A DNA stretch of 64,000 bases from a virus (Duplodnaviria; Caudoviricetes), in IMG/VR virus record IMGVR_UViG_3300009678_001573, positions 1 to 64,000 of that record. One strand, 5' to 3'. Position 1 is the first letter of the stretch; the number at the start of each line of letters is the position of its first letter. This document shows, one piece after another, positions 5,901 through 38,500 of the stretch. The notes beneath the pieces were generated by a model. It did no database searches. It was given only the letters and a program-made list of their open reading frames with translations, and was not told the DNA's origin. The position numbers were made by a program, and so were the translations under genes.

Positions 5901-6026
5901 TTATCGGCCGATCCTCTGATTTTTGACGATGGGGATATATGGATAACTGATATAGAAGATGTAAAGAAAATTAAAGTAAGAATAGGCGAATCTACCTATT
6001 CTACAACATTAACATTGGAGATTTAA
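2919..6026 (+). CDS. Virion fibre/adhesin protein with YadA-like head repeat block
   Basis: 1035 aa. DHGDLTGL..DDHPQY and TVQEALDAI fibre motifs, DLGSSSLRW connectors, and (S/T)(V/T)A(I/V)G..A.A repeats at about 4960-5680. 8 DGY. Confidence 0.75.
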   Translation: MSHFFGRRFVSSTSTDGYGVSDHGDLTGLYPDDDHPQYLITTAVRTEASPTSGIIKTDLGAGDVFSLTNAGSGAALFIRQTGNTTNADAALDIDNSDNSGRGLSVFSTTAVPLLPLVQFSALDESFDEPVLLITHANPSGLGIKVLGDGYLSGHLLGPQSVQFTSLNYNPVDIGETGIYVEGEPGIFYFVDKDGRRYTFGDVNLLEGDGIDIRDIDGLTEISVDVSDLYGTGLGTEVGFDGYLNLRLDADASMISYDDTDNTFVIGNTVQEALDAIDGYFQRSCDIVRIHKLGSAAVDAPFNSVYTLDGYTYDVGQNKLVVAINGLVQNTPTDYVEFSESAIEFSDPLDDDDEIDIIILPCGIGASMTSGSSGGADDTLQTAYDNSPSGAKNINENDGQITITQLSASGSVLRLISNSSLTTALNVDQAGSGTGITVKSVDETNSSLLIQKDAPSRNSIKNSVIVERTTSHVSGGLTGIGSAILTRLESTGTNLFSASRIITGTESAADSIEDTFLAVELSNDGILQENLRLTSIGNLGLGTTSPNDFKLQVAGNVGPDSDNIFDLGSSSLRWKDGYFGPGSIHIGTGRVFVSEEDNELYFRQNNTSFNLLSPTRLLEFEIDSSTLEDGYALTFNATTNTLEFKDPTEGFSIDIPDPFTPIDGTWNVVGNISVRGSSGGTSSEQFGEGALAAGTLSVAVGALASASADNTTVVGYDAEATSSGSVAIGRIAQASGFGNIAVGQAARAGGNGGTAVGDNANAGFTNTGSTPFGVSTAIGGNAIATGGQSVAIGQSSSATGQGGVAIGRGTSSGTGDFNTAVGRASRTNTSGVARASVFGFLSVSDSSDGISIGANSSVGTTAIGSIAIGSGTTVGNGGAGSIAIGFGATTNTFANALALGNGAQAFSNNQGTIGLPNIPIDLLIFGNLGLGISPVAVQTFKLEIAGGVGPNVDDAYGIGSPSNRWRDGYFSNDLYVSSKVRSGINKIYASINIPILSADPLIFDDGDIWITDIEDVKKIKVRIGESTYSTTLTLEI

Positions 6027-18603: not shown

Positions 18604-18834
18604 ATGACAGATAAAGTATTAACGGCGAAAGTCGTGTGGTTTGATGCTAAAAAAGGTATCGGCTTCGTAGCTAAAGATGATGGTTCAGGCGATTTATTTG
18701 TTCATTGGAGCAACTTACAGATGGAGGGCTTTAAGACGTTAAAGCCCAATCAGGTTGTTTCCTATGAATTGGGACAAAATCATCACGGCCCACAGGCAGT
18801 GAATGTTAAGGTTCTCGAAGACGCACAGGAATAA
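18604..18834 (+). CDS. csp: Cold-shock domain protein (CspA family)
   Basis: KVVWFDAKKGIGFV (RNP1), DLFVHWS (RNP2), GFKTLKPNQ.V.Y and GPQAVNV; SD AAGGAG. Confidence 0.95.
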   Translation: MTDKVLTAKVVWFDAKKGIGFVAKDDGSGDLFVHWSNLQMEGFKTLKPNQVVSYELGQNHHGPQAVNVKVLEDAQE

Positions 18835-21623: not shown

Positions 21624-21866
21624 ATGAGAAAATTAGAAAAACTTACCGTAGAGTATATTGGCTATTTACAGCCAGAAACTGAAGATGAATTACAGATGGA
21701 AATATTAGGCCTAGAGAATGCTATCAAAAATGCTGGATTAAGAATATCAGTATTAAAACAAGCCTCGCATTTAAACGAGATGATGAAAAAAGCTAAGATA
21801 GTAGGAGACAAGGCAGATGAAAAAACTGTCAATTCGTCAGTTGATACCCCTGATAAAACTGAGTAA
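21624..21866 (+). CDS. Hypothetical protein
   Basis: 80 aa, SD AAGGAG. Confidence 0.55.
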   Translation: MRKLEKLTVEYIGYLQPETEDELQMEILGLENAIKNAGLRISVLKQASHLNEMMKKAKIVGDKADEKTVNSSVDTPDKTE

Positions 21867-22341
21867 AAGGCACAAGCCAGAAGCCAAGTTAATTCAGATT
21901 ATGAAGGAAAGAGCCAAACTAGATCCTATTGTCATAAAAATGTTTAAAGAATACGAAGTACCTCTTGAAGACATAGATAGGGTAGAGGTGTCTTTCGCGC
22001 CACTGGACGTTTCCGCAAAGACAAAAAATAAAAAAATATATATAAACGAGTCGATGTTGGATGACGATAGTGATGTTAAGGATCCTACTCATTATTTGGT
22101 TCATGAACTGACTCATTATCTACAACAAACGACTGGGCAAACCCACGGTCACAAAGAAGTGTCTGAATATTTAGACAAACCAACCGAAGAAGAGGCCTTT
22201 AAGGCCCAAATTGATTTTAAGAAGAGACACGAATCCCCCGAAGAAGCAGAAAAGTATACCGAAGACCTTTTAGATCATCATAACGTCAAAGGCAAAGAAA
22301 GACAAGAAAAGAAAGACAAACTATTAAATGAAGAGAGTTAA
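21817..22341 (+). CDS. HExxH zincin-like metallopeptidase domain protein
   Basis: KIYIN...LVHELTHYLQQ...YLDKPTEEEAF: HExxH with a downstream Glu ligand. Confidence 0.65.
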   Translation: MKKLSIRQLIPLIKLSKRHKPEAKLIQIMKERAKLDPIVIKMFKEYEVPLEDIDRVEVSFAPLDVSAKTKNKKIYINESMLDDDSDVKDPTHYLVHELTHYLQQTTGQTHGHKEVSEYLDKPTEEEAFKAQIDFKKRHESPEEAEKYTEDLLDHHNVKGKERQEKKDKLLNEES

Positions 22342-22344
22342 TAA

Positions 22345-25300
22345 ATGGCAGATAAGATAAAAATCCGTAGAGGCGACTTTGTTGATTTACCTAATCTAGA
22401 CGAGGCTGAATTTGGTCTTGCCACAGATACTGGTACTTTATATATTGGTACTGAAGAAGCAACAAATATACTTATTAACCCGGTATTAGAACACGGTGAT
22501 GGTTACTCTATAGACGGCTATCTTATTCCTGCCGTAGACAACGTTCATAATCTTGGAACGCCAGATAATCGATGGGCAAGCGTGTATGTAGGCCCAGGAA
22601 CTATTAACATAGTAGCAAAAGACTCTGATGCTGGATTTTCGACAAACACAGAATATAGAATAGGAATTGATTCTGCATCTGGTACCTTACAAATTGTAGC
22701 AGGCGATAATGATTTGTTGATGGTATTAGATCCAGATACCGGTGTTACTTTCCCGGCGGGCGGCTCTGTTGAAGCTGATCCAGGACTAACAAATACGGTA
22801 ACCGAACATTATAATCAGCAAGGTCAAATTAATCAAGATATTATTAAGGCACTTGATGCCTACGGTGGAAGTGCAACAGAAGACGAACACTATATTCAGC
22901 AAAGTCAAATAAATCAATCCATTCTCCAGTCTTTAGATGGCTATGCTTCTGTTCCAAATACCAATGCAACTGGCGATGGCTATTTAGCATTTTATACTGG
23001 TGTTGGCCGTAACCTGGCCGGCGACAATGATTTATTTTGGGATAGAGAAAATGGCAGATTGGGTATTGGTACAGACTTACCCAATTCGACCTTAGATGTT
23101 AGGGGTATAGCTACATTTATTGGTGATACTGGTGTCGGTGGCCATTCTTTTATAGCTTCAGGTGCTAATACTAATAATAGACGCGGTATTTTGGTAGAGC
23201 ATAGAACATCCGGGGTAATGACTGATGGTTTTGGAATTCGTATTCAACTCTCCCATCGTGATTCAGATGGCATATCGAATGTAGTAGCGGAATTAGGTAC
23301 TTCTCGGGTCGGCTCGGATGATTCGGGTGATTTACTTTTCCTAACGGCTTCTGGTGGGGTCTTAACAGAAAAACTTCGTATCGGCGCAAGTGGAAATTCT
23401 ACTGTAAGCGGAGATTTTACTGTTGCGGGCTCTATAATAAATAAAGACTTAACAGAAACTTTTCAAGTAATTCGTCAGGCAACAGATGGCTATGCTTCAG
23501 TTCCAAATACTGCTGCCATCGGAGATGGATATATAGCTTTCTTTATCGATGGTGGAAGACAAATCGCCGGCGATAATGATTTGTTTTATAATAGAGAAAG
23601 TGGTAGTTTAGGCGTAGGGATAGATGTACCAACTGGCAAACTTCATGTAACAGGGCCTTCTGGTACTGCAGCCCTTGTCCTAGATACCCCTGTGGGTATT
23701 AATGGAACTGCTCTAGCAATGAAACAGTCTGGATCTGCAAGTCCTACTAATACATCATTAACCTTCTCACCACGAGCTGATGGAACAGAACATTGGGTAT
23801 TTGGAAGTGATGGAACTACTTTCAAAAACTATATGTCTTTTGACTATGATGGCTTCCTAGTTAAATTCGGCCCCGGTGGCTCATCGGGCGGCCTTGATAC
23901 TCTAGTTGCCGATCTTGCCAACGGACGAGTTGGTATTTCAACTGCTATTCCAGTGGCTAGGCTTGAGGTTGAAGATAATGCTATGTCTAGTGGTATGGTA
24001 GTCAAAATTACTCACGATGATCATAATGTATATGGATTAGTAATAGGCAACGATACATTTTCTACCACCGACACAGATGGCATGGCTATGTATGTTGATA
24101 ATAGCGGTGTCTCTGTGTTAGATGCGAGAGGAACTGCCTCTAGGCTTTCTGTTCAAGTAGGCGGAACAGATAGAATAAGAATTACCAATACTGGGCTTGT
24201 TGGCCTTAGTACAGCTACACCCCAAAACAGATTAGATGTAGAAGGTGCAGCGGTAATAGGTGCCACATATGCTGGTACTAATACAGCACCTACAAACGGC
24301 CTGCTTATAGAGGGTAATGTTGGTATAGGTATAACAACAGTAGGTAGCACTCAAGTAGATGTAACTCAATCTACATCTAGTACAGTTGTATCTGGTGTTG
24401 ATATTTCAAACGATAGCACTGGTGATGCTTTTATAAGATTCGGCCTAGGAGCCTCTCGTGGTTATTCTATGGGCATCGATAATTCAGATTCTGATGCTTT
24501 AAAAATAGGTACGGCCGCTAATACAGCTTCCGGAGTGGATACCGGCACCTTTATGGTAATGACTACTGCCGGTTCAGTCGGTGTTGGCGGAACCCCTATT
24601 AATGGCAAGTTTGAAGTTAATACCGCCCTTGATGAAGCAGTGGTTTCTACAGCTTATGCCAGTATAGCTGGAGTCAATGCTCGCGGTGTTTTACAGGCAA
24701 GAGCAAACGGCGGCGGCGTAATATTGGGTATGAATAACACCACCCATAGTGCATATACCCGTGGTGGCGAAGCAATGAATGGTGCCGCTGAAATGGTAAC
24801 TTTCAATGCTGGTGATGCGGTAACCAAATTTATAATAGGAAATGTTAATGCATCGCCTATTCATTTCATTATAAATGATACTAAGGCCGCTACTATAAGT
24901 TCCAATATGAATGTAGGAATTGGAACTCAAAATCCAATCGAACGACTTACAGTAAATGGTTCTATAGCATTACAGGAATTGGCCACTAGTGAAGTTCCAG
25001 TAGCCCAAGATGGCTATGGTAAAATATACGTTAAAACAGATGATAAACTATACTATAAGGATGGTTTAGGTGCAGAGGGGATAATTACTACTTCTGTTGA
25101 TGGGGCAGATGGTTATATTGCTTTTTATACCAGTGCGGGTGCTCTCGCCGGCGATAATGATTTATTCTATGATAGGGTAAATAGCATTTTAAGTGTTACT
25201 GGCGGCGTAAGTGAAGTCCAAGTTGGTGATTCAGATTTTAAATTTGACTTTCAAGCCGGCGGCGAGGGAGTTCCGGGAATAGTGTTTGATTCCGGCAACG

Positions 25301-26661
25301 ATAGAATTCGTTATGTTCGTAGCAGCGATAGTATATTTTTTGATTTAGGCGGTGCTACCGCTTTTTCTATTTCTAGTACAGCTGCCAGCGTAACTCGTAC
25401 TTTACGACCCGGCGCAGATGATACTTACGATTTAGGTTCTTTAGGTAGCTTAAGATGGCGTAATGGTTATTTTAGTACAAGTATTATAGCTGAAGGCGGT
25501 CTTGTTGTTGGATTTTCTGCAGTACCTACGGCGGATGAAATACGATTAGGCGATGCTACTTTTAAACTAGATTTTGACGCTGGTGGTGCTGGAGTACCAG
25601 GTTTAGTATTTGATACGAATGATGATATAACTTACGATAGAGCAACAAATGCGTTAGATATTAACATTAATAATATTGGAAGACTTAGTATAAATAGCGA
25701 TGGTTATGTCCAGACTTTAGGTGATACGCCGGCTGAAGCCGCCACACAAATTAGAATTAGTGGATCCAATGACTTTACTTCTGGTATAGAATTTTATACC
25801 ACTACAACTGCGCGTCGTGGTTTCGTAGGATGGCGTGGTATTAGTTCTGGTAGTGGATTAGCAGATCCTGGTATGTATTTGGTGAATTTTGATAATACAC
25901 CATTATTTTTGGGAACAAGTAGTACAAATAGAGTTCAAATTACTGCCACTGATGGGTATGTCGGTGTTAATGGTACGCCAGGCCCAGCTGGAGGAGTAGG
26001 CCCATCTAGATTACAGATATTTGCTGATGCTGCTGGTGAATCCATGTTTTCAGTACGTGATGGCAGTAATGGCGTAGCTCTTGAAATAATATCACCAGCA
26101 ACGTCTCAATTATTTATAAGAGGCGGCGCTGGCGATAATATTCATTTTGGAACTAATGGAAGCAATGATGCAGCCATAACCATCAAATCAAATAATGAAG
26201 TTGATTTGCCAGGCTTTGTGGCTTATGCAAGTGTTACTAATCTCACAGATTCAACAGCTAACGCCTCAGAATATAATCCATTTGCTTCTGGAAGTCATGC
26301 GGCTTATGTTGAAAATACTAATTGGCAACACAATACAGCATCTAATATGGTTGTGTTCACTCCAGCAGATGGAAGGTTTACCGTTGAAAGAACCGGAGTA
26401 TATGCTATAGAAGCAGTAGTATTGATGACGCAGAGTGCCACAGGCATTTTGGATAATTTTGCCGTTAGATTAAATGGTTCTACTACTATTTGGGTAGCAC
26501 AACCATTCGTACATTCTTCTGTAGATCCAGTAGAGAGAAGTATTAATTTTTATTATTCTCTTTCTGCTGGAGATTACTTAGAGCTTCTGGTGAATAGTTC
26601 AGCAGCAACTACATTGATAGTAGATAACGGGACAACATTTAACATGAGAAGGATAGCATAA
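22345..26661 (+). CDS. Long fibre protein: Mtd/hyaluronidase-like N-terminus, C1q/TNF-like C-terminal tip
   Basis: KIKIRRG...LPNLD.AEFGL..DTGTLYIG N-terminus, repeated G.VGIG...P...L.V units, and a C-terminal GRFTVERTGVY...LSAGDYLEL. 10 DGY. Confidence 0.75.
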   Translation: MADKIKIRRGDFVDLPNLDEAEFGLATDTGTLYIGTEEATNILINPVLEHGDGYSIDGYLIPAVDNVHNLGTPDNRWASVYVGPGTINIVAKDSDAGFSTNTEYRIGIDSASGTLQIVAGDNDLLMVLDPDTGVTFPAGGSVEADPGLTNTVTEHYNQQGQINQDIIKALDAYGGSATEDEHYIQQSQINQSILQSLDGYASVPNTNATGDGYLAFYTGVGRNLAGDNDLFWDRENGRLGIGTDLPNSTLDVRGIATFIGDTGVGGHSFIASGANTNNRRGILVEHRTSGVMTDGFGIRIQLSHRDSDGISNVVAELGTSRVGSDDSGDLLFLTASGGVLTEKLRIGASGNSTVSGDFTVAGSIINKDLTETFQVIRQATDGYASVPNTAAIGDGYIAFFIDGGRQIAGDNDLFYNRESGSLGVGIDVPTGKLHVTGPSGTAALVLDTPVGINGTALAMKQSGSASPTNTSLTFSPRADGTEHWVFGSDGTTFKNYMSFDYDGFLVKFGPGGSSGGLDTLVADLANGRVGISTAIPVARLEVEDNAMSSGMVVKITHDDHNVYGLVIGNDTFSTTDTDGMAMYVDNSGVSVLDARGTASRLSVQVGGTDRIRITNTGLVGLSTATPQNRLDVEGAAVIGATYAGTNTAPTNGLLIEGNVGIGITTVGSTQVDVTQSTSSTVVSGVDISNDSTGDAFIRFGLGASRGYSMGIDNSDSDALKIGTAANTASGVDTGTFMVMTTAGSVGVGGTPINGKFEVNTALDEAVVSTAYASIAGVNARGVLQARANGGGVILGMNNTTHSAYTRGGEAMNGAAEMVTFNAGDAVTKFIIGNVNASPIHFIINDTKAATISSNMNVGIGTQNPIERLTVNGSIALQELATSEVPVAQDGYGKIYVKTDDKLYYKDGLGAEGIITTSVDGADGYIAFYTSAGALAGDNDLFYDRVNSILSVTGGVSEVQVGDSDFKFDFQAGGEGVPGIVFDSGNDRIRYVRSSDSIFFDLGGATAFSISSTAASVTRTLRPGADDTYDLGSLGSLRWRNGYFSTSIIAEGGLVVGFSAVPTADEIRLGDATFKLDFDAGGAGVPGLVFDTNDDITYDRATNALDININNIGRLSINSDGYVQTLGDTPAEAATQIRISGSNDFTSGIEFYTTTTARRGFVGWRGISSGSGLADPGMYLVNFDNTPLFLGTSSTNRVQITATDGYVGVNGTPGPAGGVGPSRLQIFADAAGESMFSVRDGSNGVALEIISPATSQLFIRGGAGDNIHFGTNGSNDAAITIKSNNEVDLPGFVAYASVTNLTDSTANASEYNPFASGSHAAYVENTNWQHNTASNMVVFTPADGRFTVERTGVYAIEAVVLMTQSATGILDNFAVRLNGSTTIWVAQPFVHSSVDPVERSINFYYSLSAGDYLELLVNSSAATTLIVDNGTTFNMRRIA

Positions 26662-27371
26662 TGAAACAAGTTATGATATTTATGTCATATAGAACTGGTT
26701 CTAAAACATTTCTTAATATGCTAGGTGCCTCTAAAAAAGATAAATCTAATAAAGAAAGGGGCTTTGAGAGAACATTTAGGGGAAATTTCATAGCGGCTAC
26801 ACAACCAAAAGATGTTTGTCCAGTGATATACAGAAGAGATGGTGCGGACATTTCTCAAATATATTATAATCTTAAAGATGATTTTTCTAATATTATTTAT
26901 TGGACTAGATTAGAAAATGAGATTCCCTCGCTGTTTACTTTGCCAAATTTATCGAAATTGAATGGTGACTGGAAGTTTGTAAGTATTATTAGGGATGGTA
27001 GGGATCAAGTAGAGTCTTGGATGGATTTTAGAGGACAGAGAAAGCCAAAATCAGTAGAGGGCGACAGACCGTTTATAGATATGTGTGAGGGTTGGGCTAA
27101 AAGAGCAAATCATACAAAATTACTTATGGAAAATTTTAATTGTAAGTTAATTAAATTCGAAGATTTAATTATAGACCCAAAACTATGCTTCTATGATATA
27201 ATGAATTTTATTGGGCTTGAACCTGATAATTTATATTTAGATTCTATTATCGACATTTTAAATTCAGAAAAAACCGACAATAAAATAAAGTGGAAAGATT
27301 GGGATAAGGACAAATTAAATACTTTTTATAGTATAGCGGAAGATGAAATGAAGTATTTTAATTATATGTAA
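26661..27371 (+). CDS. PAPS-dependent sulfotransferase (Sulfotransfer_3/TPST-like)
   Basis: 5'-PSB-like SYRTGSKT, 3'-PB-like FVSIIRDGRDQVES, KFEDLIIDP...IMNFIGL and a C-terminal KWK.W...M..F.Y. The start overlaps the fibre gene stop (TAATG). Confidence 0.8.
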   Translation: MKQVMIFMSYRTGSKTFLNMLGASKKDKSNKERGFERTFRGNFIAATQPKDVCPVIYRRDGADISQIYYNLKDDFSNIIYWTRLENEIPSLFTLPNLSKLNGDWKFVSIIRDGRDQVESWMDFRGQRKPKSVEGDRPFIDMCEGWAKRANHTKLLMENFNCKLIKFEDLIIDPKLCFYDIMNFIGLEPDNLYLDSIIDILNSEKTDNKIKWKDWDKDKLNTFYSIAEDEMKYFNYM

Positions 27372-27380
27372 GGATGAACA

Positions 27381-30300
27381 ATGGCTGATAAAATAAAAAT
27401 TCGTAGAGGAAACTTTATTAATCTACCGGATCTAGATTCGGGTGAGTTTGGTCTGTCCGTTGATACTGGTACTCTTTATGTTGGTACTCCAGATCATAAT
27501 ATTCTTATAAATCCAGTATTAGAAAGTGGAGACGGATATTCAATAGATGGCTATTTAGTTCCGGCAACAGATAACGTTCATAACCTAGGCACCCCAGATT
27601 CTAGATGGCACAGTGTTTTCGTGGGGCCGGGCACCATTAATATAGTAGCAAAAGATTCAGATGCGGGTCATAATTCTAATAAAGAATTTAGAATAGGGGT
27701 TGATTCAGTTACTGGCACATTACAATTTGTAGATGAAAATGATAACGTGTTAATGACATTAGATTCCGAAGAAGGTGCTTCATTTCCAGCCGGCGGCGGG
27801 GGTGTAGATGAAGGATTAGCAATTACAGTAGACGAACACTATATTCAAAATTCGACCGCCATACAAACTGTATTAAAAGATTTAGATGGCTACGCGGTAA
27901 TTCCAAATACAGCAGCTACAGGCGATGGCTATTTAGCCTTCTATACTGGTGTTGGTCGTAATTTAGCTGGGGATAATGATTTATATTGGAATCGCGAAAC
28001 AAATACATTTAGCGTTGGCCAATCAAGTGATACAGATGCTCTTTTTAGAGCAGATAATACCAACAATAGAGTTGTTATAGGAAATAATATAGGACAATTT
28101 GATACTCTAACAGTTCATGGTACAGCGGTTCGTATAGCAACCTTTGGCAATGCAGCACAAGGTGTATTGAAATTTTCACAACATGCATCTGCACCAAATA
28201 TAGTTGGCCACGAGTCAGCAGGATTTTCTTTTAATACTATATCAGCTTCCTCTGCAGTAGTAATAGATGATTTGGGTAGAGTGGGTATGAATGCTGGAGC
28301 AGCACCTATAGTTGCTAGACTTACTGCATTCGGTACCGGAATAGGATTTCCAGTCACATCTGGTACAACACAATCTGCTGGACATGTAGTACGACTAAAA
28401 GATAGCTCTAACGCCATATTAGATATTGGTGGAAATGCTTCGAGTGGGTTTTGGCTACAATCTACCGATCAAGCTGATCTCGCCCTAGAATATCCTCTCT
28501 TATTAAATCCAAATGGTGGTTTTGTTAGTATAGGCAAAACCATTCCTACCTCGGCCCTTGATGTTTCTGGTACTATAACCGGATTAGCAAATATAAGTAA
28601 TGAAAACGGTGCCAATTTTACCGGATTGGATTCTGGTCATGGTGTAGCTGGAACTGGCGGTGCAACTGGTGAGGGCGGACATTTTACAGCCTCTGGTGCA
28701 ACTGCTGTTGTTGGTATTGCGGGTGGTGGTAATAATTGGGGTGCAAGTTTTGCTGGATTTGGCTCTGGTATAGGCGTTAAGGGAACCGGAGGTGGCACCA
28801 GTGGTGTAGGCGTATCTGGTCAAGGCGGTTCTCCAAATGGCATTGGTGTAGTGGGTGTGGGGCTTGGTTCAGGTGCTGGTGGTTTTTTCCAGGGAGGTTC
28901 AACAGGAGTTGGTATTACGGCAACGCCAGGTGCCGGCAGTATTGTTGCTGGAAGTTTTCTTGGAGATATTAATGTCTCAGGATCTATAGTAAATAAAGAT
29001 TTAACTGAAACTTTCCAAGTTATTAGACAAGCAGCAGATGGTTATGTTACAGCTCCAAATACCGCAGCAATAGCCGATGGTTATGTTGCCTTCTTTATAG
29101 ATGGTGGAAGACAAATAGCCGGCGATAATGATTTTTACTGGGACCGCCTTAATAGTAGATTAATTATTGGTGGATCAGAAACAGCAGTAGCACCTACCTT
29201 ATCGTTTGGTGATGGTGATACTGGATTTTATGAACAAACAGACGATACTATGCGTATAGCTATAGCTGGTTCGGCTATTTGGAGAATTGATAGCTCTACA
29301 TTAGGTACGGGAATATCTGGCGGGCCTATATTAAGAAATGTTGTTGCTAGTTCCACTAATCCGAGCTTAGCCCCAAATATTTCTGATACCGATACTGGCA
29401 TTGGAACTTCTGGTGCCGATCAATTATCGTTAATTACTGGTGGCATTGAGGCTGCTAGATTTACTACTACCTCTACTAATATTAATGGGACTTTAAATAT
29501 AGGTGGCGATATTGTAAATTCCAACCTAACCGAAACAATCGGGGCCATTAGACAGGCCGCTGATGGTTACGCTTCAGTTCCTAACCTAAGTTCTATAGCC
29601 GATGGCTATGTAGCTTTCTTTATAGACGGCGGAAGACAAATAGCCGGTGATAATGATTTATTTTGGGATAGACTTAATAATAGATTGGGTGTTGGAACGC
29701 AAGCCCCAAGCACAACTTTACATATACTTGGGACTATTACTGGAACAGCTAACACCACTAATTCTGATGGTGCTGTTTTTACAGGAGATGGTTCTGGTTC
29801 AGGTGTTTCTGGCACAGGCGGAACAGGCGGCACTGGTGTAACAGGAACGGGAACTGGAACGGGAACTGGAGTTGTTGGTCAGGGTGGCTCAACAGACGGA
29901 AATGGAGTTACTGGTTTTGGCTCTGGATTAGGCATAGGTGTTACGGGTTTTGGCGGCAGTTCTTCTGGTACTGGTATTAGCGGAGTTGGAGGTAGTACTA
30001 ATGGCACCGGAATTATAGGTACTGGTCAAGGCTCCGGTGCTGGCGGTTCATTTACTGGCGGTGCAACAGGTGCGGGCATTATTGCTACAGCTGGCACCGG
30101 TAATTTTGCCGGTAATTTTATTGGAGATATTACTGTTGCGGGAGCTATTTATAATAATAATTTATCTGAAACTATCAATACTATAAGACAAGCATCAGAT
30201 GGTTATCTCTCCGATTTAACTTATAAACATGCCTCTGGAACTGCTGGTTGGTCAACATATTATGTACCCTGGCTTAATATTAGTTCGTGGAGTACGGGAA

Positions 30301-30764
30301 GTTTAACTGCCAATCAATTATATGGATTTCCATTTATTCACGGCAGCGAGGACAGAAATATTGATGATATTGCTGTACAAATTGTCACTGGTGCAGCCGG
30401 CAATGCTATTGTGGGAATTTATACAGCCACAAGTTCTAGAAATTTATATCCAGATGCACTTGTAACCTCTGGGGTAATTAGTACAACTTCTACTGGCACT
30501 ATTAGCTCAAGTGCTGCAGCCACTCTACGTGCAGGACAGATGTATTGGTTAGTTTGGAATGCTAATGCAGCACCAGTATTGCGAGTTCCGTCCAGCACTG
30601 CCATTCCTGGTATTTTAGGTGTTAGCCCAGCTAATACCACCAATTATGGACGTATTATAGTGGCTAGAACATATGATGGTACTTTACCTGCAACATTCCC
30701 AGCAAGTGCTGCTTTGGAGGCAAGCTTTACTATAGGCTTATACTTGCAATATACTTCAGCATAA
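27381..30764 (+). CDS. Long fibre protein, paralogue of 22345 with Gly-rich segments
   Basis: The first ~200 aa are highly similar to 22345 (MADKIKIRRG...GDGYSIDGY...VGPGTINIVAKDSDAG). Contains G.G.G-rich blocks and a different C-terminal tip. 9 DGY. Confidence 0.75.
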   Translation: MADKIKIRRGNFINLPDLDSGEFGLSVDTGTLYVGTPDHNILINPVLESGDGYSIDGYLVPATDNVHNLGTPDSRWHSVFVGPGTINIVAKDSDAGHNSNKEFRIGVDSVTGTLQFVDENDNVLMTLDSEEGASFPAGGGGVDEGLAITVDEHYIQNSTAIQTVLKDLDGYAVIPNTAATGDGYLAFYTGVGRNLAGDNDLYWNRETNTFSVGQSSDTDALFRADNTNNRVVIGNNIGQFDTLTVHGTAVRIATFGNAAQGVLKFSQHASAPNIVGHESAGFSFNTISASSAVVIDDLGRVGMNAGAAPIVARLTAFGTGIGFPVTSGTTQSAGHVVRLKDSSNAILDIGGNASSGFWLQSTDQADLALEYPLLLNPNGGFVSIGKTIPTSALDVSGTITGLANISNENGANFTGLDSGHGVAGTGGATGEGGHFTASGATAVVGIAGGGNNWGASFAGFGSGIGVKGTGGGTSGVGVSGQGGSPNGIGVVGVGLGSGAGGFFQGGSTGVGITATPGAGSIVAGSFLGDINVSGSIVNKDLTETFQVIRQAADGYVTAPNTAAIADGYVAFFIDGGRQIAGDNDFYWDRLNSRLIIGGSETAVAPTLSFGDGDTGFYEQTDDTMRIAIAGSAIWRIDSSTLGTGISGGPILRNVVASSTNPSLAPNISDTDTGIGTSGADQLSLITGGIEAARFTTTSTNINGTLNIGGDIVNSNLTETIGAIRQAADGYASVPNLSSIADGYVAFFIDGGRQIAGDNDLFWDRLNNRLGVGTQAPSTTLHILGTITGTANTTNSDGAVFTGDGSGSGVSGTGGTGGTGVTGTGTGTGTGVVGQGGSTDGNGVTGFGSGLGIGVTGFGGSSSGTGISGVGGSTNGTGIIGTGQGSGAGGSFTGGATGAGIIATAGTGNFAGNFIGDITVAGAIYNNNLSETINTIRQASDGYLSDLTYKHASGTAGWSTYYVPWLNISSWSTGSLTANQLYGFPFIHGSEDRNIDDIAVQIVTGAAGNAIVGIYTATSSRNLYPDALVTSGVISTTSTGTISSSAAATLRAGQMYWLVWNANAAPVLRVPSSTAIPGILGVSPANTTNYGRIIVARTYDGTLPATFPASAALEASFTIGLYLQYTSA

Positions 30765-30840: not shown

Positions 30841-32511
30841 TTGAAATTACCCGCTATTTCAGTATCACGATGGGCAATAAATGACCAAGGAGACGCTTAC
30901 AGGGTAGACGGTTATGTAGGTATAGGTACAGATTCGCCTACTGAAAAATTACATGTTGATGGTAATATCATATCTAATGATCCTGCTTTGCCAGAACATG
31001 TTTCAACTAAATCCTATGTTGATGAACAGATTGCGAGTGTTCAAGTAGATATTGATGGCTATGCACGGGCTACTGACGAAACACTTTCTTTTACAGTTGA
31101 CTATAATCTAGCTGGTGCTATAGAAGCATTGCCATTTGGAACAGTTTTTTCAAGTCAGGCTCAAATCGATGGTTATTTGGCAGATGCTGGTACTACAGCT
31201 TTTAAATATTTTCAAGATGCTTGGAATTCTTTACCTACAAATGTGGTTCATAATGTTACCTTTAATTTGGCGGCAGGAGTACATAGACCGCGTAGTCCAG
31301 AATCAAATACAGCAGCTTGGACTCTTTCTGGCAAAACTACTATAGCTCCAGCAATAATTACAATTCAAGGTGCATCAAGTGCAAGTTATGTTACTGTGGT
31401 ACCTTCCTCAACAATTACGGCAGTACAGGCCGCAAGCAATGATCCATTTGTAGATGTTGATTATCCGTTTGCTGTAGATGGTTATAGAGGGCTTTTTGCT
31501 ATTTTTGATACAGGACAAGTTGTAGTAATACATGATAATTCGGCAAGTCGTCTATCAGTCGCTACTAACATTAGTCCGTCTAGTCCAACATCAGTGATTG
31601 TAGGTCGCCCAGGAACTATTCTACGCAATAGTTATGATGATTTTAATAGAGTAAAGACTACTGGTATATCAGTTGGAAGTGGGAATCTCTCCCCATGTAG
31701 AGTAACTTTTTCCGATATTCAATTTGATGGATTTAATCCTACGTTTTCTGTTACTACAGGTTTAGGTGCTATTGTAGCTGTTACTAGATTTCTTATTGAC
31801 CACGCTTACGTTAAAGACACATTTGGTGTTTCTGATAGCGGCCGCGGATTTCAACCGGGAGAGAGTTTTACTGCTACAGTTTCTTCATTAAGAGGAACTA
31901 ATATAGCCGCAGTTCCTACAACATCCTCCGGAGATGCATTATTTTGTGCAGCAGGCGGAAAAACGATTTTGTTTAGCCAATGTTATATTGGAGGGTTCAG
32001 ACGTATTTTAATGGCCGGACCATCCAATACTCCTCCAGGTTTAAGCATATCTTCAGTTGTCTTTGATAAGATGTGGCAATTTGGGCTTTTTCTACAAAAT
32101 GGAATTCCAATATTTGCTCAACACAATTCGTCCGGAGTATATTCTACGTTTCGCGATATAGGTGGTACAGCAATATATTTACAGCGCAATTGTCATTTTA
32201 GCCCAGGCACTACTCAAACCATAGATATAAAATTTGAAGGCCAGGGAGCCTTTCCTTGTTTATTATTGGAACAGGGTTCTTCATGTATTATAGAAGCCGG
32301 CATAGGCTTACAAAATGGTGCTACATCAAATGCTGATGTAGGAATTCAATTGTCAGGCCCACACAATAGATTAATATTAAATAGCTCTACTAATGTTAGC
32401 GGTACTAATGGAGAAGTAAGGTTCTCTGATAATAGTGTCAGATTTTATGCCGATATTAAAGACGCCGGCCCGTTTATAGACACCTCGCTTAACTTTGCAC
32501 AGAAAGCCTAA
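30841..32511 (+). CDS. Fibre/tailspike-like protein with beta-helix
   Basis: TTG start with SD GGAG. VGIGTDSPTEKLHVDG and HVSTKSYVD fibre motifs, then beta-solenoid-like sequence. Confidence 0.6.
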   Translation: MKLPAISVSRWAINDQGDAYRVDGYVGIGTDSPTEKLHVDGNIISNDPALPEHVSTKSYVDEQIASVQVDIDGYARATDETLSFTVDYNLAGAIEALPFGTVFSSQAQIDGYLADAGTTAFKYFQDAWNSLPTNVVHNVTFNLAAGVHRPRSPESNTAAWTLSGKTTIAPAIITIQGASSASYVTVVPSSTITAVQAASNDPFVDVDYPFAVDGYRGLFAIFDTGQVVVIHDNSASRLSVATNISPSSPTSVIVGRPGTILRNSYDDFNRVKTTGISVGSGNLSPCRVTFSDIQFDGFNPTFSVTTGLGAIVAVTRFLIDHAYVKDTFGVSDSGRGFQPGESFTATVSSLRGTNIAAVPTTSSGDALFCAAGGKTILFSQCYIGGFRRILMAGPSNTPPGLSISSVVFDKMWQFGLFLQNGIPIFAQHNSSGVYSTFRDIGGTAIYLQRNCHFSPGTTQTIDIKFEGQGAFPCLLLEQGSSCIIEAGIGLQNGATSNADVGIQLSGPHNRLILNSSTNVSGTNGEVRFSDNSVRFYADIKDAGPFIDTSLNFAQKA

Positions 32512-32522
32512 TAGGAAATGAG

Positions 32523-35500
32523 ATGACCTTATTTATAGGACAACAAAAATTCGAAGGTATAAAAATTGGTGACCAACTACTCACCGATACCCTGGACGGC
32601 TATGGCACGACTATTGATGAACATCATCAACAGCAAGAACAAATTAACCAAACTATAATTCAGGCCCTAGATGGTTATGCACTTGCTCCCGAAGTGGGCT
32701 CCGGTGCCGATGGATATGTAGCCTTCTTTACTGGAACAAGTTCTGTTGCCGGTGATAATGATTTATTCTGGGATAGAGAAGGTAATAGGCTTGGAATAGG
32801 TACTTCTACACCAACATCTAAATTACAAGTAGTTGGAAATGCTTCTGTGCGAGCTGTCGGTGGTTCCTCTGGAAGTGAACAATTTGGAGAAAATGCCTCA
32901 GCAAGTGCGACAAACTCAACAGCTATAGGTAGTTCAACTATCGCATCTGGATCAACCTCGTTAGCCGTAGGTAGAGAGGCAGAAGCAATAGCATCTGGTG
33001 TTATATCAATCGGTTATCAGGCTAATTCTGGTATTGTTGGCGTGAGTACCGGCAGTATGGCAATTGGTAGATTTACTCAAACTCCAGCAATTCAAGCTAC
33101 AGCAATTGCTGATGGCGCATTTGCTATGAGTAATGGCTCACTTGCCATAGGGGTAAATGCAGGCACCGGATATACTGATAATACAAAAACACACCAAACT
33201 GTTGTGGGCAATGGAGCGCGCGCCGCAAGTCACCGTAGTACCGCTATAGGTATCGCAGCTGCTGCAGGAGATACAAATGTTGATGCTACAAGTGCAATAG
33301 CTATTGGAGATACGTCTAAATCTGATGGTGTTAATAGTATTGCTCTGGGAACATCTGCATCTGCTACAAAATCAAACGCATTCGCTATAGGTGCCTCTGC
33401 CGTAACATCCGCCGATAACCAAGGCATATTTGGCAATTCTATTACTCCAATCAATCTTGTTAATTTTGGAAGTATGGCATTAGGAACACCATCTACTGCT
33501 CAAAACTTTAAATTAGAAGTCGCCGGGGATGTCGGGCCAAATGTAGATGATGCTTATAGCTTGGGTTCAGAAACTTTTAGGTGGAAGGATGGTTATTTTG
33601 GGCCAGGCTCACTTCATATAATTTCAACGGCTGCTGAAAATAATTCCGGCTTTACTAGAGATTGGGTTTTAGGCACCAACGATACTGGCGGCATTGCTAT
33701 TAAAACCTCTGGTGCTTCTAAACTTTCATTTAATTCTAATTCTAATACTTGGTTCTCTTCGGGTAATTTTTCTTCCAGAGAGCCCGGTGGGGCTTCTAAC
33801 AGCGAACAATTTGGTGAATTAGCCATAGCTTCTGGCACTGATTCTACAGCCGTAGGTAGAGGCGCAACCGCAAATAATACTTCAACTACCGCTATTGGTA
33901 GTGGTGCTCAAGCAACATCTGCTGCAAATAATACTGCTATTGGACAAAATGCTCAAGCAGTTAATTCTGGTGATTCTACAGTTATAGGCATGTCGGCTTT
34001 AGCTAATGGCGGCGATGGTGTAGCAGTAGGGCGCTCTGCACAAGCAACAGCTAATAGAGCAGTGGCTATTGGTAGAAATTCTGTAAGCTCTCAATCAGAG
34101 GCTACAGCACTTGGTTATGGTTCTGCTGCGCAACAAGTGCAGGCAGTAGGCATTGGCGCTTTTTCAAATGCAAATCAAATTGGGGCTACTGCTATAGGTG
34201 CTTTAGCTACAGCGACTGGTACAGGTGCCGTTTCAATTGGTTCAAGTGCCGGCGCAAGTGTAACCAATGGTATAGCAATCGGCTCATCAACTACCGCCGC
34301 AGCAACCAATACGGTCATAATGGGAGCAGCAGTTTCTACAACTTCTGGTGCTACAAATGCAACAGTTATAGGCAAACCTGTTGGTACTGTTAGTAGCGCC
34401 GATGTTACTTCTTTAGGTCATAATACCACTATTACTGGTGCACGAATTACTGTCATAGGCCACAACGCTATTGCTCAAAACGATGATGTTACTGCTATTG
34501 GTCGCGGGACTCAAGTTACTGGCCTACAGAGTACTTCTTTGGGCAGTAGTACAGTTGCTACAGGCGCTTCCGCTGTTTCTGTAGGTTTCGGAGCATCATC
34601 TACTGGATCAGCAAATACTGCAATAGGGCACAACTCAGTTACTGGTTCTAGCGGAAGCAATACTGCTATAGGTAAAAGCGCCCAAGCTGGCGGAGATAAT
34701 GCAGTAGCTGTCGGTGAAACAGCAATAGCTACTGCTGTTCGCGCTATAGCTGTAGGTGCTGATGCAAGTGCAGCAAGTACAAATAGTATAGCTATAGGCC
34801 AGGGCGCCTCTGCAGGCCCACTGGGTACCAATGCTAATTGCATAGCGATTGGATTCGGAACTCAAGCAAATGGAGCTAATGGAGCTACCGCCGTTGGCAG
34901 TACCGCTACCGCTTCTGCTGCTCAAAGTACTGCCCTAGGAAAAGACACCCTAGCCAATCAAACAAATGCAACAGCAGTTGGTTATTCGGCCGACGCAACC
35001 GGTGGTGATTCAACCGCATTAGGCTCTCAATCCACTGCTTCTTCTTCTGGCACAACTGCTTTTGGTTCGTCAGCTACAGCATCTGGTTCTAATTCTACTG
35101 CGATTGGTGCAACTACAAATGCCACTAATACCTCTACTGTTTGTATTGGTGCATCTTCTCGTGCTGCTGGCAGTGCTTCATTGGCTATAGGTCAAAATGC
35201 ACAAGCACAAACTGGAGCAGATAATACCATCCTAATAGGACAGGGTATTCAGACTACTAATCCAAGTGCTGTTGCTATCGGCTCAAGTATAGGAAGTAAT
35301 ATAGGAAGTAATTCAATTGCCATAGGAACCTCGTCTAATGCTAACGCCTTAACTTCTGTGGCAATAGGTACAGGTGCTACGGCCAATACAGCACACTCAG
35401 TGGCTCTGGGCGCAAGTTCTGTTGCAACCGGCACGAATGGCTCAACTGCGCTTGGTCGTGATGCCCAAGCAACTGGAGCTGATTCTACATCAATTGGTCA

Positions 35501-38500
35501 TGGCCCAATAGTTCAGGCAACAAACGCTGTTGTAGTTTCTAGTGCATCTATGACCGTCACTTCTGCTGGTAGCGCAAGTACCATAGTTGGTAAAACTACT
35601 GGTTCTGTATCAGCAGCAAGTGTCACTGGTGTCGGTCATAATATTAATATCGGAACTGGTGTTGCTGAAACAACCGCTATCGGTGCTGGGGCTACGGCAA
35701 CAGTTGCTAATTCTACCGCTGTGGGTTCTGGTGCTAATGCCGGCGGGACCAATGGAACCACTGCCATCGGTAGAGGAGCTACAGCAACAGGTTCTGACTC
35801 ATTAGCGGTTGGAACTGGCGCAACAGCCAATTCAACTAGTACCACAGCAGTGGGCGATGGTGCTTCAGCTACTGGCTCTAGTTCAACTGCTATTGGACAA
35901 ACTGCTCTAGCTAATCAGCCATCTACTGTAGCTATCGGGCAGAATGCTAGAGCCCAAGCTGCTGGTGGTGTTTCGGTAGGCGCTGGTACAAATATTACTG
36001 GCTCAGTAACAGATGCGGTCGCTATTGGTCTCGCATCTTCTGTATCAGCCTCTGGCGGTATTGCCATGGGCTCAGGCTCATCCGTTACTTCTGCTGCAAC
36101 TGGTGGGTCTGTCGTAATTGGTTTAAGTGCATCTGCCTCAAAGGCAAACTCGATTGGTATAGGCGCTGGTGTCGGAACAGATGACTCTGTTGTGGTGGGT
36201 GTCAGTGCCAGCTCATTTGGTACCGGCGCAAGCAATGTAATTATAGGAAAAAGCGCTACTAATGGTGGATTAAGTTCATCGGTGGTTTCTATTGGAGCAT
36301 TTTCCCAGGCCACAGCATCCAATTCTGTAGCTCTGGGAGCATCATCATCTGTCACTGGTGCAGGCTCAATTGCAATAGGAAATAATGCCAATACTTTTGC
36401 CTTTACTAATTCTTTAGCTATTGGTAATGGATCAGTTGTTTTGGCAAATAATACTGGAACAATAGGAAACCCTAATTCTCCAATTGATTTATATACTTTT
36501 GGTAAGTTCGGCGTAGGAATTTCTCCAAGTGCTTTGTTTAATTTTAATATTGAGTCCGCTGGTGATATTGGGCCTAATGTAGATGATGCGTATAGTCTTG
36601 GTTCCGAAGCATTTAGGTGGCGAGATGGATATTTTGGCCCCGGCACTCTACATTTTAGACAAAATTCGGATGAAAATGATTTTGGTGTAGAGCGAGATTG
36701 GAACTTTGGAATTAATTCTTCTGGCGATTTAACTATTCGTCAAGATGATATGGTTTATGCTAAATTTAGTCATGATCGTCCAATAAGTCTTGGTACCCAG
36801 GCAATAACTTCGCGCGGCCTTGGTGCTGGTAGCGTAATAGTTGGAGGCCAGCTTGAAGTCGACGGTCGAATATGGGCAGATGGTGATATAACTACAACCA
36901 CCCTAACTACCACTGCTATATCTGGTGTCGGCGGCGTATTTTTTGCCAATTCACCATTCTTCTTCTCATCTGGAGAACAATCAGTTGGGTTGGCATTAAA
37001 TCAAACATTTGATCAATTTGTATTTGCCACTAATGCCCTATCAGGAAGGGCAGTAGTATTTACAGATGTATCAAATTATACCAAAGATCACGATCATGAT
37101 ATCCAGGGAAATCCGGCCATATTTATACACAGCATTACAGATGTAGATGTAGATAATTCGCAATGGTTAGGTTTTTATCACGATACAACTAAAGCTAATA
37201 TCGAAACTGGTTTAGGTTCCATCTCACTTGCCCCATACGATGGTTATGTATTACCCGCAGCGGACGATGCTTATTCAATAGGCTCTCCATCATTGCGCTG
37301 GAAAGATATATGGTTGGGTCCAGGTACATTGCATTTTAAACAAAATACTTCTGAGAGCGATACTGGCTTAGAGCGCGATTGGACTATGGGAATAGATAGT
37401 TCTGGTGGCTTTAGGGTAAGACAATCAGAAGAACATCATATGCTTCTTAAGACAGATGGCACTAATAATGTTATATTTGGTAAAACCATTAGTACGGTAT
37501 TTGGAAGTAACATTACTTCAATTGGTTTTGGTACAAATGTCGGATCAAGTATTTCTAATGCTACAGCGGTTGGTCAAGGTGCACAAGCTACAAACTCATT
37601 TGCAACGGCAATGGGCGTTAGTTCCAATGCAACCACCAATTGTGTTGCCATGGGTGGTGGCGCTGCAGCCTCAGTAGCATCTAGTGTTGCTATTGGCTTC
37701 TCTTCTACAAGTTCTGGTGGAAATTCAACTGCAGTCGGTGCATCTGCATCTGCTACAGGTTCTAATGCAACATCATATGGCTCTTCTGCTGTTGCAGGTG
37801 GCACTAGTGCTGTTTCAGTAGGATTTCAATCTCAAGCTAATATATCAAATGCTATTGCCATAGGCAACACTAACGTAATAGGTTCTGGTGGTGGTATTGC
37901 TATAGGAAACAATCTTACCTTTAGTTCTGGTACTTCTAATAGCATAATTATTGGAACACTTGGTGGTACCCTTACTGGCGCAAGTAATACCTCTATTGGT
38001 ATAGGTAATACTGTTGGCACTGGTATAGCAAATGTTACGGCCATAGGAGCTTCATCAACGGCTAATGCAACAGATGCCACAGCGGTTGGTCAGGGTTCAT
38101 CAGCAGCAGCAGCTAGTGCTTTAGCAGTAGGTAAGAGTGCCTCGGCAGCTGGTACAAATACTACGGCAATTGGCGCTAATACTATAACCACAAGCGGTGT
38201 AAATCATACGGCGGTGGGTAAAGGTGCTACAGCCTCCAATGTTAATGATAATAATACAGCCATTGGTTATAATGCAATTGCTACAGGTGGACACTCGATA
38301 GCAATTGGTGCTTCATCTAATGCTTTGGCCGGCTCAAATGATTCTATAGCAATAGGTTATAATTCATCGAATAGTTCTTCTGATTCTGTACTTCTTGGTA
38401 ATAATGCAACCATTGGTGCTTCCTTTACGGGTGCAATAGCAATTGGTGCCTCCTCTTCTGCCTCTGGAGCTGATACCATTGCCATTGGCCGTTCTTCTGG

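Follow-up and report, generated by a model that had tools for sequence, protein, structure and literature searches.

A predicted sulfotransferase gene (ST) was found between two paralogous fibre genes in a viral DNA window of 64,000 nucleotides, which comprises positions 1 to 64,000 of the 96-kb IMG/VR record IMGVR_UViG_3300009678_001573. The following features were assigned to the locus.

21817..22341, + strand: DUF4157/eCIS_core-like protein of 174 aa with an HExxH motif (HELTH); translation and homologues at the same position
22345..26661, + strand: fibre A, 1438 aa, 10 DGY, N-terminus of the Mtd_N type; open reading frame and weak profile matches
26649..26653, + strand: SD-like AAGGA at the 3' end of the fibre A gene, with a spacing of 7 nt to the ST start codon; sequence reading
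26661..27371, + strand: predicted PAPS-type sulfotransferase (ST), 236 aa; motifs, profiles and AF2 fold
27370..27374, + strand: SD-like AAGGA that shares nucleotides with the ST stop codon and lies 6 nt upstream of the fibre B start; sequence reading
27381..30764, + strand: fibre B, 1127 aa, with 9 DGY and a C-terminus unlike that of fibre A; open reading frame, N-terminal paralogue of fibre A
30841..32511, + strand: fibre-like protein of the "ORF30841 type", 556 aa; homologues in the related loci L006, L009 and L011

Organization and composition of the locus

The genes for fibre A and ST meet in the sequence TAATG, in which stop and start share one nucleotide, and the gap between the ST stop and the start of fibre B is 9 nt. 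The gene coordinates, the overlap and the spacing had been described in an earlier note on this DNA, and all of them were confirmed. No convincing terminator or promoter was found between fibre A, ST and fibre B. The co-expression of ST with the fibres, which had also been proposed, is in agreement with the translational coupling that is predicted from the overlapping TAATG and the two SD-like sites, and ST is thus predicted to be coupled to the fibre genes within a late structural operon. The DUF4157 gene, which immediately precedes the fibre block, is a conserved anchor, and the Pfam scores of its product for eCIS_core (19.3 bits) and Peptidase_M91 (21.1 bits) were both under the cut-off.

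The two fibres are 61% identical over their first 242/213 residues and have internal modules in common. Fibre A gave weak matches to Mtd_N and End_tail_spike and matched the PHROG tail fibre family phrog_9942 at 1.5e-5. A comparison with PDB sequences yielded only bd2133, a fibre of Bdellovibrio, as a weak match (E 0.17), and the C-terminal 175 aa matched no PDB sequence. By eye, the C-terminal domain of fibre A resembles a C1q/TNF-like jelly roll.

The ST gene had been described as AT-rich and possibly a recent insert. The first part was confirmed, as its GC content is 0.301, and this low value is due to the amino acid composition of ST. The second part was rejected. The GC3 of 0.257 corresponds to the record median of 0.264 and is close to the values of the flanking genes (0.240 and 0.215), and the composition therefore does not point to a recent insertion.

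Identity and fold of the sulfotransferase

The PAPS-binding motifs quoted before (YRTGS, IIRDGRD..ES, KFEDL..DP) are all present in the ST translation. The 5'-PSB loop is Y10-R-T-G-S14, with R11, G13 and S14, and the 3'-PB motif is I109-I-R-D-G-R-D-Q-V-E-S119, with R111, D112, G113, R114 and S119. Further motifs are K165-F-E-D-L-I-I-D-P173 (FEDL at 166-169) and K210-W211..W214. Among the aligned relatives, the loop positions are occupied by R (35/35), G (34/35) and S/T (36/36). R111 is invariant, and D112, R114 and S119 were found in 37, 36 and 37 of 38 sequences, respectively. Together with R11, E167 and W214, these residues of the 3'-PB motif are kept in at least 90% of the 38 relatives.

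In comparison with Pfam, ST scored 23.2 bits for Sulfotransfer_1, above the cut-off of 22, and 26.3 bits for Sulfotransfer_3, just below the cut-off of 27. Sulfotransfer_3 was matched by 30 of the 38 family members, with E-values down to 1e-29. NCBIfam gave no meaningful match for ST. The AF2 model of ST has a pLDDT of 86.7. In the VIA structural comparison, sulfotransferases occupy the first 23 places with Z values of 9.9-15.0, clearly ahead of kinases at 9.8 or less, and the Foldseek probability is 1.00. Based on motifs, profiles and the predicted fold, the 236-aa protein is a genuine PAPS-type sulfotransferase of the Sulfotransfer_1/3 superfamily with intact cofactor motifs. No signal peptide or membrane segment was found in its translation, and it is probably a soluble, PAPS-using and active enzyme.

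The best matches were the "activating" sulfotransferase domains of CurM/OLS (PDB 4gbm, 4gox) and other Sulfotransfer_3 enzymes. The family profile gave E-values of 6.7e-15 for the CurM domain, about 1e-9 for SULT2A1 and 1e-9 for TPST1. At the structural level, the Z values were 15.0 for the OLS sulfotransferase (191 residues aligned at 2.9 Å), 14.2 for TPST1, 14.0 for SULT7A1, 13.9 for 3rnl, 13.8 for TPST2 and 13.3 for NDST. ST shares with CurM/OLS the R-x-G-S 5'-PSB loop with its Arg and the RDGR-type 3'-PB motif. In contrast to ST, which is a free protein encoded in a fibre operon, the CurM/OLS domains are parts of polyketide/olefin synthases and act on acyl-ACP. The catalytic Glu/His pair of CurM falls into an insert that is not aligned to ST. 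Between both PAPS motifs, no conserved His or Glu was found in the ST alignments; this region is variable and has a pLDDT of 52-64 in the AF2 model, and the candidates for a catalytic base are E32 and E36. TPST1/2 have the RDGR...S motif in common with ST, and in a comparison set without a RaxST structure TPST was tied with OLS/CurM, SULT7A1, NDST and 3-OST. The comparison by HMM and structure that had been suggested in the earlier note thus showed polyketide, steroid and heparan sulfotransferases to be at least as close to ST as TPST is.

Conservation of the cassette and distribution of DGY

The order fibre-ST-fibre was found again in L002/L003, with an ST identity of 83%, in L004 (57%) and in L006, in which ST is 31% identical over the whole protein and 39% over the matched part. 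In this small sample of four lineages, fibre and ST retain their order even where ST identity falls to about 31-39% and the fibre tips change, and therefore fibre and ST are regarded as a conserved cassette. Homologues of the DUF4157 protein with 50-63% identity are encoded at the same position in L006, L009, L011, L013 and L015. The homologue of the ORF30841 type follows directly after ST in L006 and directly after the DUF4157 gene in L009 and L011. Relative to the DUF4157 gene as an anchor, the window and L006 have the Mtd_N fibre as well as ST, and L009 and L011 have neither.

In a comparison with cultured phages, the locus had no match among 50,697 phage records (megablast), and tblastn searches of the same records with ST, with the N-terminus of fibre A and with the remote relative P0010 also gave no match. 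Scans of IMG/VR and JGI metagenomes for ST relatives revealed nothing beyond one contig that was already known; the broad ST alignment A2 was too diverse to be used as a scan query.

The two fibres contain 19 DGY, as had been claimed, namely 10 in fibre A and 9 in fibre B, versus 0.46 and 0.29 expected from composition. For the whole record, 95 DGY in 49 open reading frames were counted versus 5.3 expected, an 18-fold enrichment. It extends over nearly all structural genes, most of which are far from ST. Neither DGF (1.1x) nor EGY (0.5x) is enriched; the effect is therefore specific for the Tyr and the Asp of the motif. The motif is located in conserved structural modules, i.e., at the ends of helical repeats, in a GDGY-AFF...AGDNDLFWDR module and in RW-DGYF. 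The AF2 prediction of the DGY module has a pLDDT of 50 and shows only a helix that ends just before D-G-Y.

The co-occurrence of DGY enrichment and ST was analyzed in related records. Seven other viral records, which are 9-55% complete, have fibre loci with a 7-21x DGY enrichment and no ST; the search was accompanied by a positive control. Two of them are L009 and L011, in which the homologous slot is visible and contains neither ST nor an Mtd_N-type fibre. In L006 the fibre upstream of ST has only 3 DGY, versus 19 in another fibre. G006, the only near-complete record matching the DGY module pattern, has 1 DGY versus 3.1 expected and was left out of the test. No association was found, and relatives with comparable DGY enrichment and without a sulfotransferase, which the earlier note had named as evidence against its proposal, have, provisionally in view of the completeness of these records, been observed. 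ST co-varies with the Mtd_N-type fibre class and not with DGY content.

The sulfate acceptor and competing explanations

Remote relatives of ST were found in the neighbourhood of genes for nucleotide sugar and glycan metabolism. In L007 the relative adjoins a GDP-mannose 4,6-dehydratase-like gene, in L008 a second sulfotransferase gene and a methyltransferase gene, on contig P0013 a Sulfotransfer_2 gene and a methyltransferase gene, and in L027 genes for a UDP-glucose/GDP-mannose dehydrogenase and an epimerase/dehydratase. The remote relatives also have uncharacterized partner genes of 260-343 aa, and none of these has a homologue in the record. The neighbours of ST are fibre genes and not glycosyltransferase genes. 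The only glycosyltransferase gene seen in the 96-kb record encodes a GT4 enzyme (record positions 94698-95906); it closes the structural block 67 kb downstream of ST. No GT9 gene and no gene for PAPS synthesis, including APS kinase, was found in the 96-kb record, which represents part of a parent contig of 468 kb (ENA ERZ27267619, k141_116371).

The explanation that fits these results best, with a probability of about 0.45 for the whole, is as follows. In a very large uncultured myovirus, ST and the Mtd_N-type fibre would form a conserved, co-translated cassette of the late structural operon, and ST would be an active, soluble enzyme synthesized in the cytoplasm along with the fibres. Its sulfate acceptor would be a hydroxyl group associated with the Mtd_N-type fibre, and DGY would be a separate, virion-wide feature and not a recognisable target of ST. 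The likeliest acceptor would be a sugar on the fibre, because the remote relatives are found in nucleotide-sugar and glycan clusters and a GT4 gene closes the structural block; an amino acid side chain of the fibre protein may serve instead, with lower probability. Glycans as acceptors had been named in the earlier note as the alternative to tyrosines. ST is most likely a carbohydrate-type sulfotransferase that works with one fibre class. For the present, the main value of the cassette is that its two genes make up a clean system for testing by co-expression.

A related system is the virion glycosylation of mycobacteriophages, for which Freeman et al. in 2023 are said to have described glycosyltransferases encoded next to structural genes; this study is cited in PMC11256854. 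In both cases a modifying enzyme is encoded among virion genes, and the particle of the phage itself is its presumed target. In contrast to the mycobacteriophage glycosyltransferases with their demonstrated products, ST is a sulfotransferase with a predicted role in fibre modification and without an adjacent glycosyltransferase.

The proposal can be narrowed to an ST that is dedicated to one receptor-binding fibre class and sulfates the fibre in the cytoplasm prior to assembly, either at a side-chain hydroxyl or at an attached sugar. Phrased in this way it is rather unlikely. A literature search found no paper on a phage-encoded sulfotransferase or on sulfate-decorated phage fibres, and, if true, this would be the first sulfated phage virion. 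A decoration of the fibre by ST would allow a sulfate-based tuning of adsorption, charge or resistance of host-recognition organelles. In the extreme version of fibre sulfation, the acceptor may be the Tyr of DGY, which is treated below.

A different acceptor would be a glycan or lipid precursor of the host envelope. ST would then be a host-range accessory within the fibre cassette that, for example, masks the receptor of the neighbouring fibre. The purpose of such masking could be superinfection exclusion or the avoidance of progeny loss on debris. It is well known that phages carry genes for modifying surface polysaccharides. The glycan and nucleotide-sugar clusters of the remote relatives are in accordance with this possibility, the co-variation of ST with one fibre class would be expected of a receptor-specific accessory, and an adjacent glycosyltransferase is not required for this role. 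However, a late structural operon with coupling to fibres is poor timing for a remodelling of the surface via cytoplasmic precursors, the ST translation is that of a soluble protein, and no flippase or polymerase genes were found nearby. A host acceptor is therefore also regarded as rather unlikely.

The location of ST could also be incidental, and the enzyme could sulfate a soluble metabolite or nucleotide-sugar that is unrelated to fibres, as the product of an auxiliary metabolic gene or moron. Feature-based look-alikes of ST form several sulfotransferase clusters with a 100% viral label and 50-118 members each, and therefore sulfotransferases are common phage accessories. In addition, the best PDB profile matches (CurM, SULT2A1) are enzymes with small-molecule or ACP substrates. 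However, the fibre-ST order outlasts the changes of the fibre tips, GC3 is native, and the coupling signals are in place, which makes an incidental location clearly improbable.

The earlier note had proposed that a TPST/RaxST-like ST sulfates the Tyr residues of DGY on the fibres and thereby generates a polyanionic virion surface. ST is indeed a sulfotransferase that is predicted to be co-translated with two DGY-rich fibres, it has the fold and the PAPS motifs of TPST1/2 and RaxST, and TPST1/2 are among its top structural matches. The specificity of the enrichment for Tyr and Asp would be expected of a modification site, no glycosyltransferase adjoins ST, and the idea is comparable to the sulfation of secreted or surface proteins by TPST and RaxST. 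In contrast to the acceptors of these enzymes, which have an Asp at -1 and acidic surroundings, every DGY Tyr has a Gly at -1, and 14 of the 19 sites in the fibres have only one acidic residue, the motif's own Asp, within +/-5, with hydrophobic flanks; the RaxX site sulfated by RaxST is G-D-sY (PMC4646787). The tie of TPST with other sulfotransferases, the sugar clusters of the ST relatives, the DGY-rich structural genes far from ST and the lack of co-occurrence of ST and DGY across the relatives also argue against it. As nothing links ST specifically to DGY or to TPST/RaxST, a sulfation of D-x-Y tyrosines on the virion is unsupported and very unlikely. The DGY enrichment is now set apart from ST, and, therefore, another explanation should be sought for it, which could be structural or could involve a different writer enzyme.

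Similarly improbable is a non-catalytic fibre assembly factor with a retained sulfotransferase fold, which would occupy the slot directly after a fibre gene, as the genes of tfa/gp38-type chaperones do, and would be consistent with the lack of a conserved His or Glu between the PAPS motifs. However, no PHROG chaperone family (and no PHROG family at all at E <= 0.01) matched ST, and its fold is that of a sulfotransferase. Such a role is judged to be very unlikely, since the 38 relatives, including the fibre-linked clade, show little or no variation at the cofactor residues.

Gene order and age of the fibre-sulfotransferase cassette

The three open reading frames (fibre A, sulfotransferase and fibre B) were found exactly as described in the earlier note. 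They and their neighbours in the window are:

18604-18834: cold-shock-domain (PF00313) gene, 76 aa, within the structural gene block
21817-22341: DUF4157/eCIS_core-like protein, 174 aa, HExxH motif (HELTH), immediately before fibre A
22345-26661: fibre A, 1438 aa
26134-26658: last 175 aa of fibre A, a domain kept in the fibres upstream of the sulfotransferase in the related loci L002 and L004, not in that of L006
26661-27371: sulfotransferase (ST), 236 aa
27381-30764: fibre B, 1127 aa
30841-32511: fibre-like protein, 556 aa (ORF30841 type)

The start of ST overlaps the stop of fibre A, i.e., the final A of the TAA is the first base of the ATG. An AAGGA is located 7 nt upstream of this ATG, and a second AAGGA overlaps the ST stop, 6 nt before the ATG of fibre B. 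At both junctions terminator-like sites were absent and promoter-like matches were at background level. Because of these features, co-transcription and translational coupling of the three genes are likely. The proposed coupling of ST to the fibres is real, and it is also conserved in relatives. The C-terminal domain of fibre A had no sequence match in Pfam or PDB; visual inspection suggests a C1q/TNF-like jelly roll.

The fibre-ST-fibre order recurs in L002 and L003 (83% ST identity), in L004 (57%) and in L006 (31% over the whole protein, 39% in the best-matching part). ST had been suspected to be a recent AT-rich insert. Its GC content is indeed low (0.301), but its GC3 of 0.257 equals the record median of 0.264, and native GC3 together with the old gene order ruled out a recent insertion. 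In six lineages the fibre block opens with the DUF4157/HExxH gene, namely in the window and in five other viral loci (L006, L009, L011, L013 and L015; 50-63% identity), where it always immediately precedes the first fibre gene. Its product may have a metallopeptidase-like or cargo-loading role in the block. In the window the gene is followed by fibre A with an Mtd_N-type N-terminus, ST, the Mtd_N fibre B and the ORF30841-type fibre, in L006 by an Mtd_N fibre, ST and an ORF30841-type fibre, and in L009 and L011 directly by the ORF30841-type fibre. These gene orders indicate that ST and an Mtd_N-type fibre travel together as a cassette of two genes. In L006, homing-endonuclease genes of the GIY-YIG/NUMOD3 and LAGLIDADG types were seen a few kb upstream of the cassette (L006:1-3201).

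The enzyme and its acceptor

The single ST protein was borderline in Pfam (Sulfotransfer_1, 23.2 bits, cut-off 22; Sulfotransfer_3, 26.3 bits, cut-off 27). An exhaustive search yielded 57 relatives, and Sulfotransfer_3 was matched by 30 of the 38 aligned relatives, with E-values down to 1e-29. The family profile matched the solved sulfotransferases CurM (6.7e-15), OLS (3.4e-11), SULT2A1 (about 1e-9), TPST1 (1e-9) and TPST2 (1e-7). The AF2 model was confident (pLDDT 86.7), and its best structural matches were all sulfotransferases:

OLS ST: Z 15.0
TPST1: Z 14.2
SULT7A1: Z 14.0
3rnl: Z 13.9
TPST2: Z 13.8
NDST and 3-OST: Z about 13

These differences in the model comparison are ties within method error. 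A special kinship with the tyrosylprotein sulfotransferases (TPSTs) was thus not borne out, TPST being tied with other sulfotransferases in structure and CurM being ahead in the profile comparison. The cofactor residues R11/G13/S14, R111/D112/R114/S119, E167 and W211/W214 are conserved in the aligned relatives. Between the two PAPS motifs the sequence varies and the model is poor, which prevented the assignment of a catalytic base. Taken together, profile matches, model and conserved residues argue that ST is a real, probably active PAPS-dependent sulfotransferase. Homology carries no specific information on its acceptor.

Where the surroundings of remote relatives (25-35% identity) were informative, they were sugar-pathway clusters:

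L007: GDP-mannose 4,6-dehydratase-like neighbour
L008: two tandem sulfotransferases and a methyltransferase
P0013 contig: methyltransferase and Sulfotransfer_2 gene
L027: HNH endonuclease, methyltransferase, UDP-glucose/GDP-mannose dehydrogenase and epimerase/dehydratase

By features, the nearest ESM Atlas clusters consist of sulfotransferases; each has 50-118 members and is labelled 100% viral. From both observations the wider family looks like phage-borne glycan tailoring. Unannotated proteins of 260-343 aa precede the relatives in L007, L008 and L027, those of the first two being homologous (35% identity). They belong to clusters that also encode methyltransferases and nucleotide-sugar enzymes, and they may be an unrecognised glycan-tailoring partner.

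The tentatively preferred reading (probability about 45%) is that of a fibre-cassette sulfotransferase, which would be made together with an Mtd_N-class fibre and would sulfate a hydroxyl associated with that fibre, most probably on a sugar. Sulfation of a host-surface glycan is rather unlikely, and action on a metabolite unrelated to the fibre is improbable.

The DGY motif

In the 49 ORFs of the record DGY occurs 95 times versus 5.3 expected (17.9-fold). This far exceeds the enrichment of any other tripeptide, and the second-ranking common one reaches only 4-fold. The enrichment is specific to Asp and Tyr (whole record: DGF 1.1-fold, EGY 0.5-fold, NGY 0.2-fold, DAY 3.8-fold). DGY stands in recurrent modules, at the end of helical repeats of about 27 aa, in GDGY-[ILV]AF[FY]...AGDNDLF[WY][DN]R and in RW[KR]DGYF.

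The earlier note had proposed that ST sulfates these tyrosines, a proposal to be refuted by DGY-rich relatives lacking a sulfotransferase. IMG/VR was scanned with the DGY module and eight other records matched, seven of which had DGY-rich fibre loci (7- to 21-fold). No sulfotransferase was found in these seven, which are 9-55% complete, with the family profile and PF13469; as a positive control, the profile recovered the window's own gene at 2.2e-72. In L009 and L011 the homologous position can be seen directly and holds no sulfotransferase, and the fibres carry 11 and 33 DGY. In L006 the fibre upstream of ST has 3 DGY, the downstream one 19. The sequence context also counts against classical tyrosine sulfation. 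Gly stands at -1, positions -3 and +1 are hydrophobic, and at 14 of the 19 sites in fibres A and B a single acidic residue lies within +/-5. In contrast, the site of the bacterial enzyme RaxST is G-D-sY (PMC4646787). The proposal is not supported and, by the criterion of the earlier note, provisionally refuted; it is very improbable. The DGY enrichment spreads over nearly all structural genes of the record and is independent of ST. Least probable is that ST is a non-catalytic chaperone.

Gene content of the record

The IMG/VR record is 95.9 kb long, bears the label "provirus" (CheckV completeness 24%) and has the window as its first 64 kb. The region around ST also occurs, in identical form, on a metagenome contig of 468 kb. 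With genes for a sheath, a baseplate-J protein and many giant fibre-like proteins, the record is by its gene content part of the genome of a very large myovirus. Neither a GT9 glycosyltransferase nor an APS kinase was found in it, and no glycosyltransferase gene adjoins ST. Further features are:

record 94698-95906 (L022:14698-15906, in the rest of the record): GT4-type glycosyltransferase (Glycos_transf_1, 36 bits), the last gene, just after baseplate and fibre genes
window 32523-39389: fibre with many YadA-head repeats, 2288 aa, 171 bits
window 2919-6026: fibre with many YadA-head repeats, 1035 aa, 33 bits

Should the virion be glycosylated, the GT4 would be a candidate for the writer. With their YadA-head repeats, the two phage fibres carry beta-roll repeats of the adhesin type.
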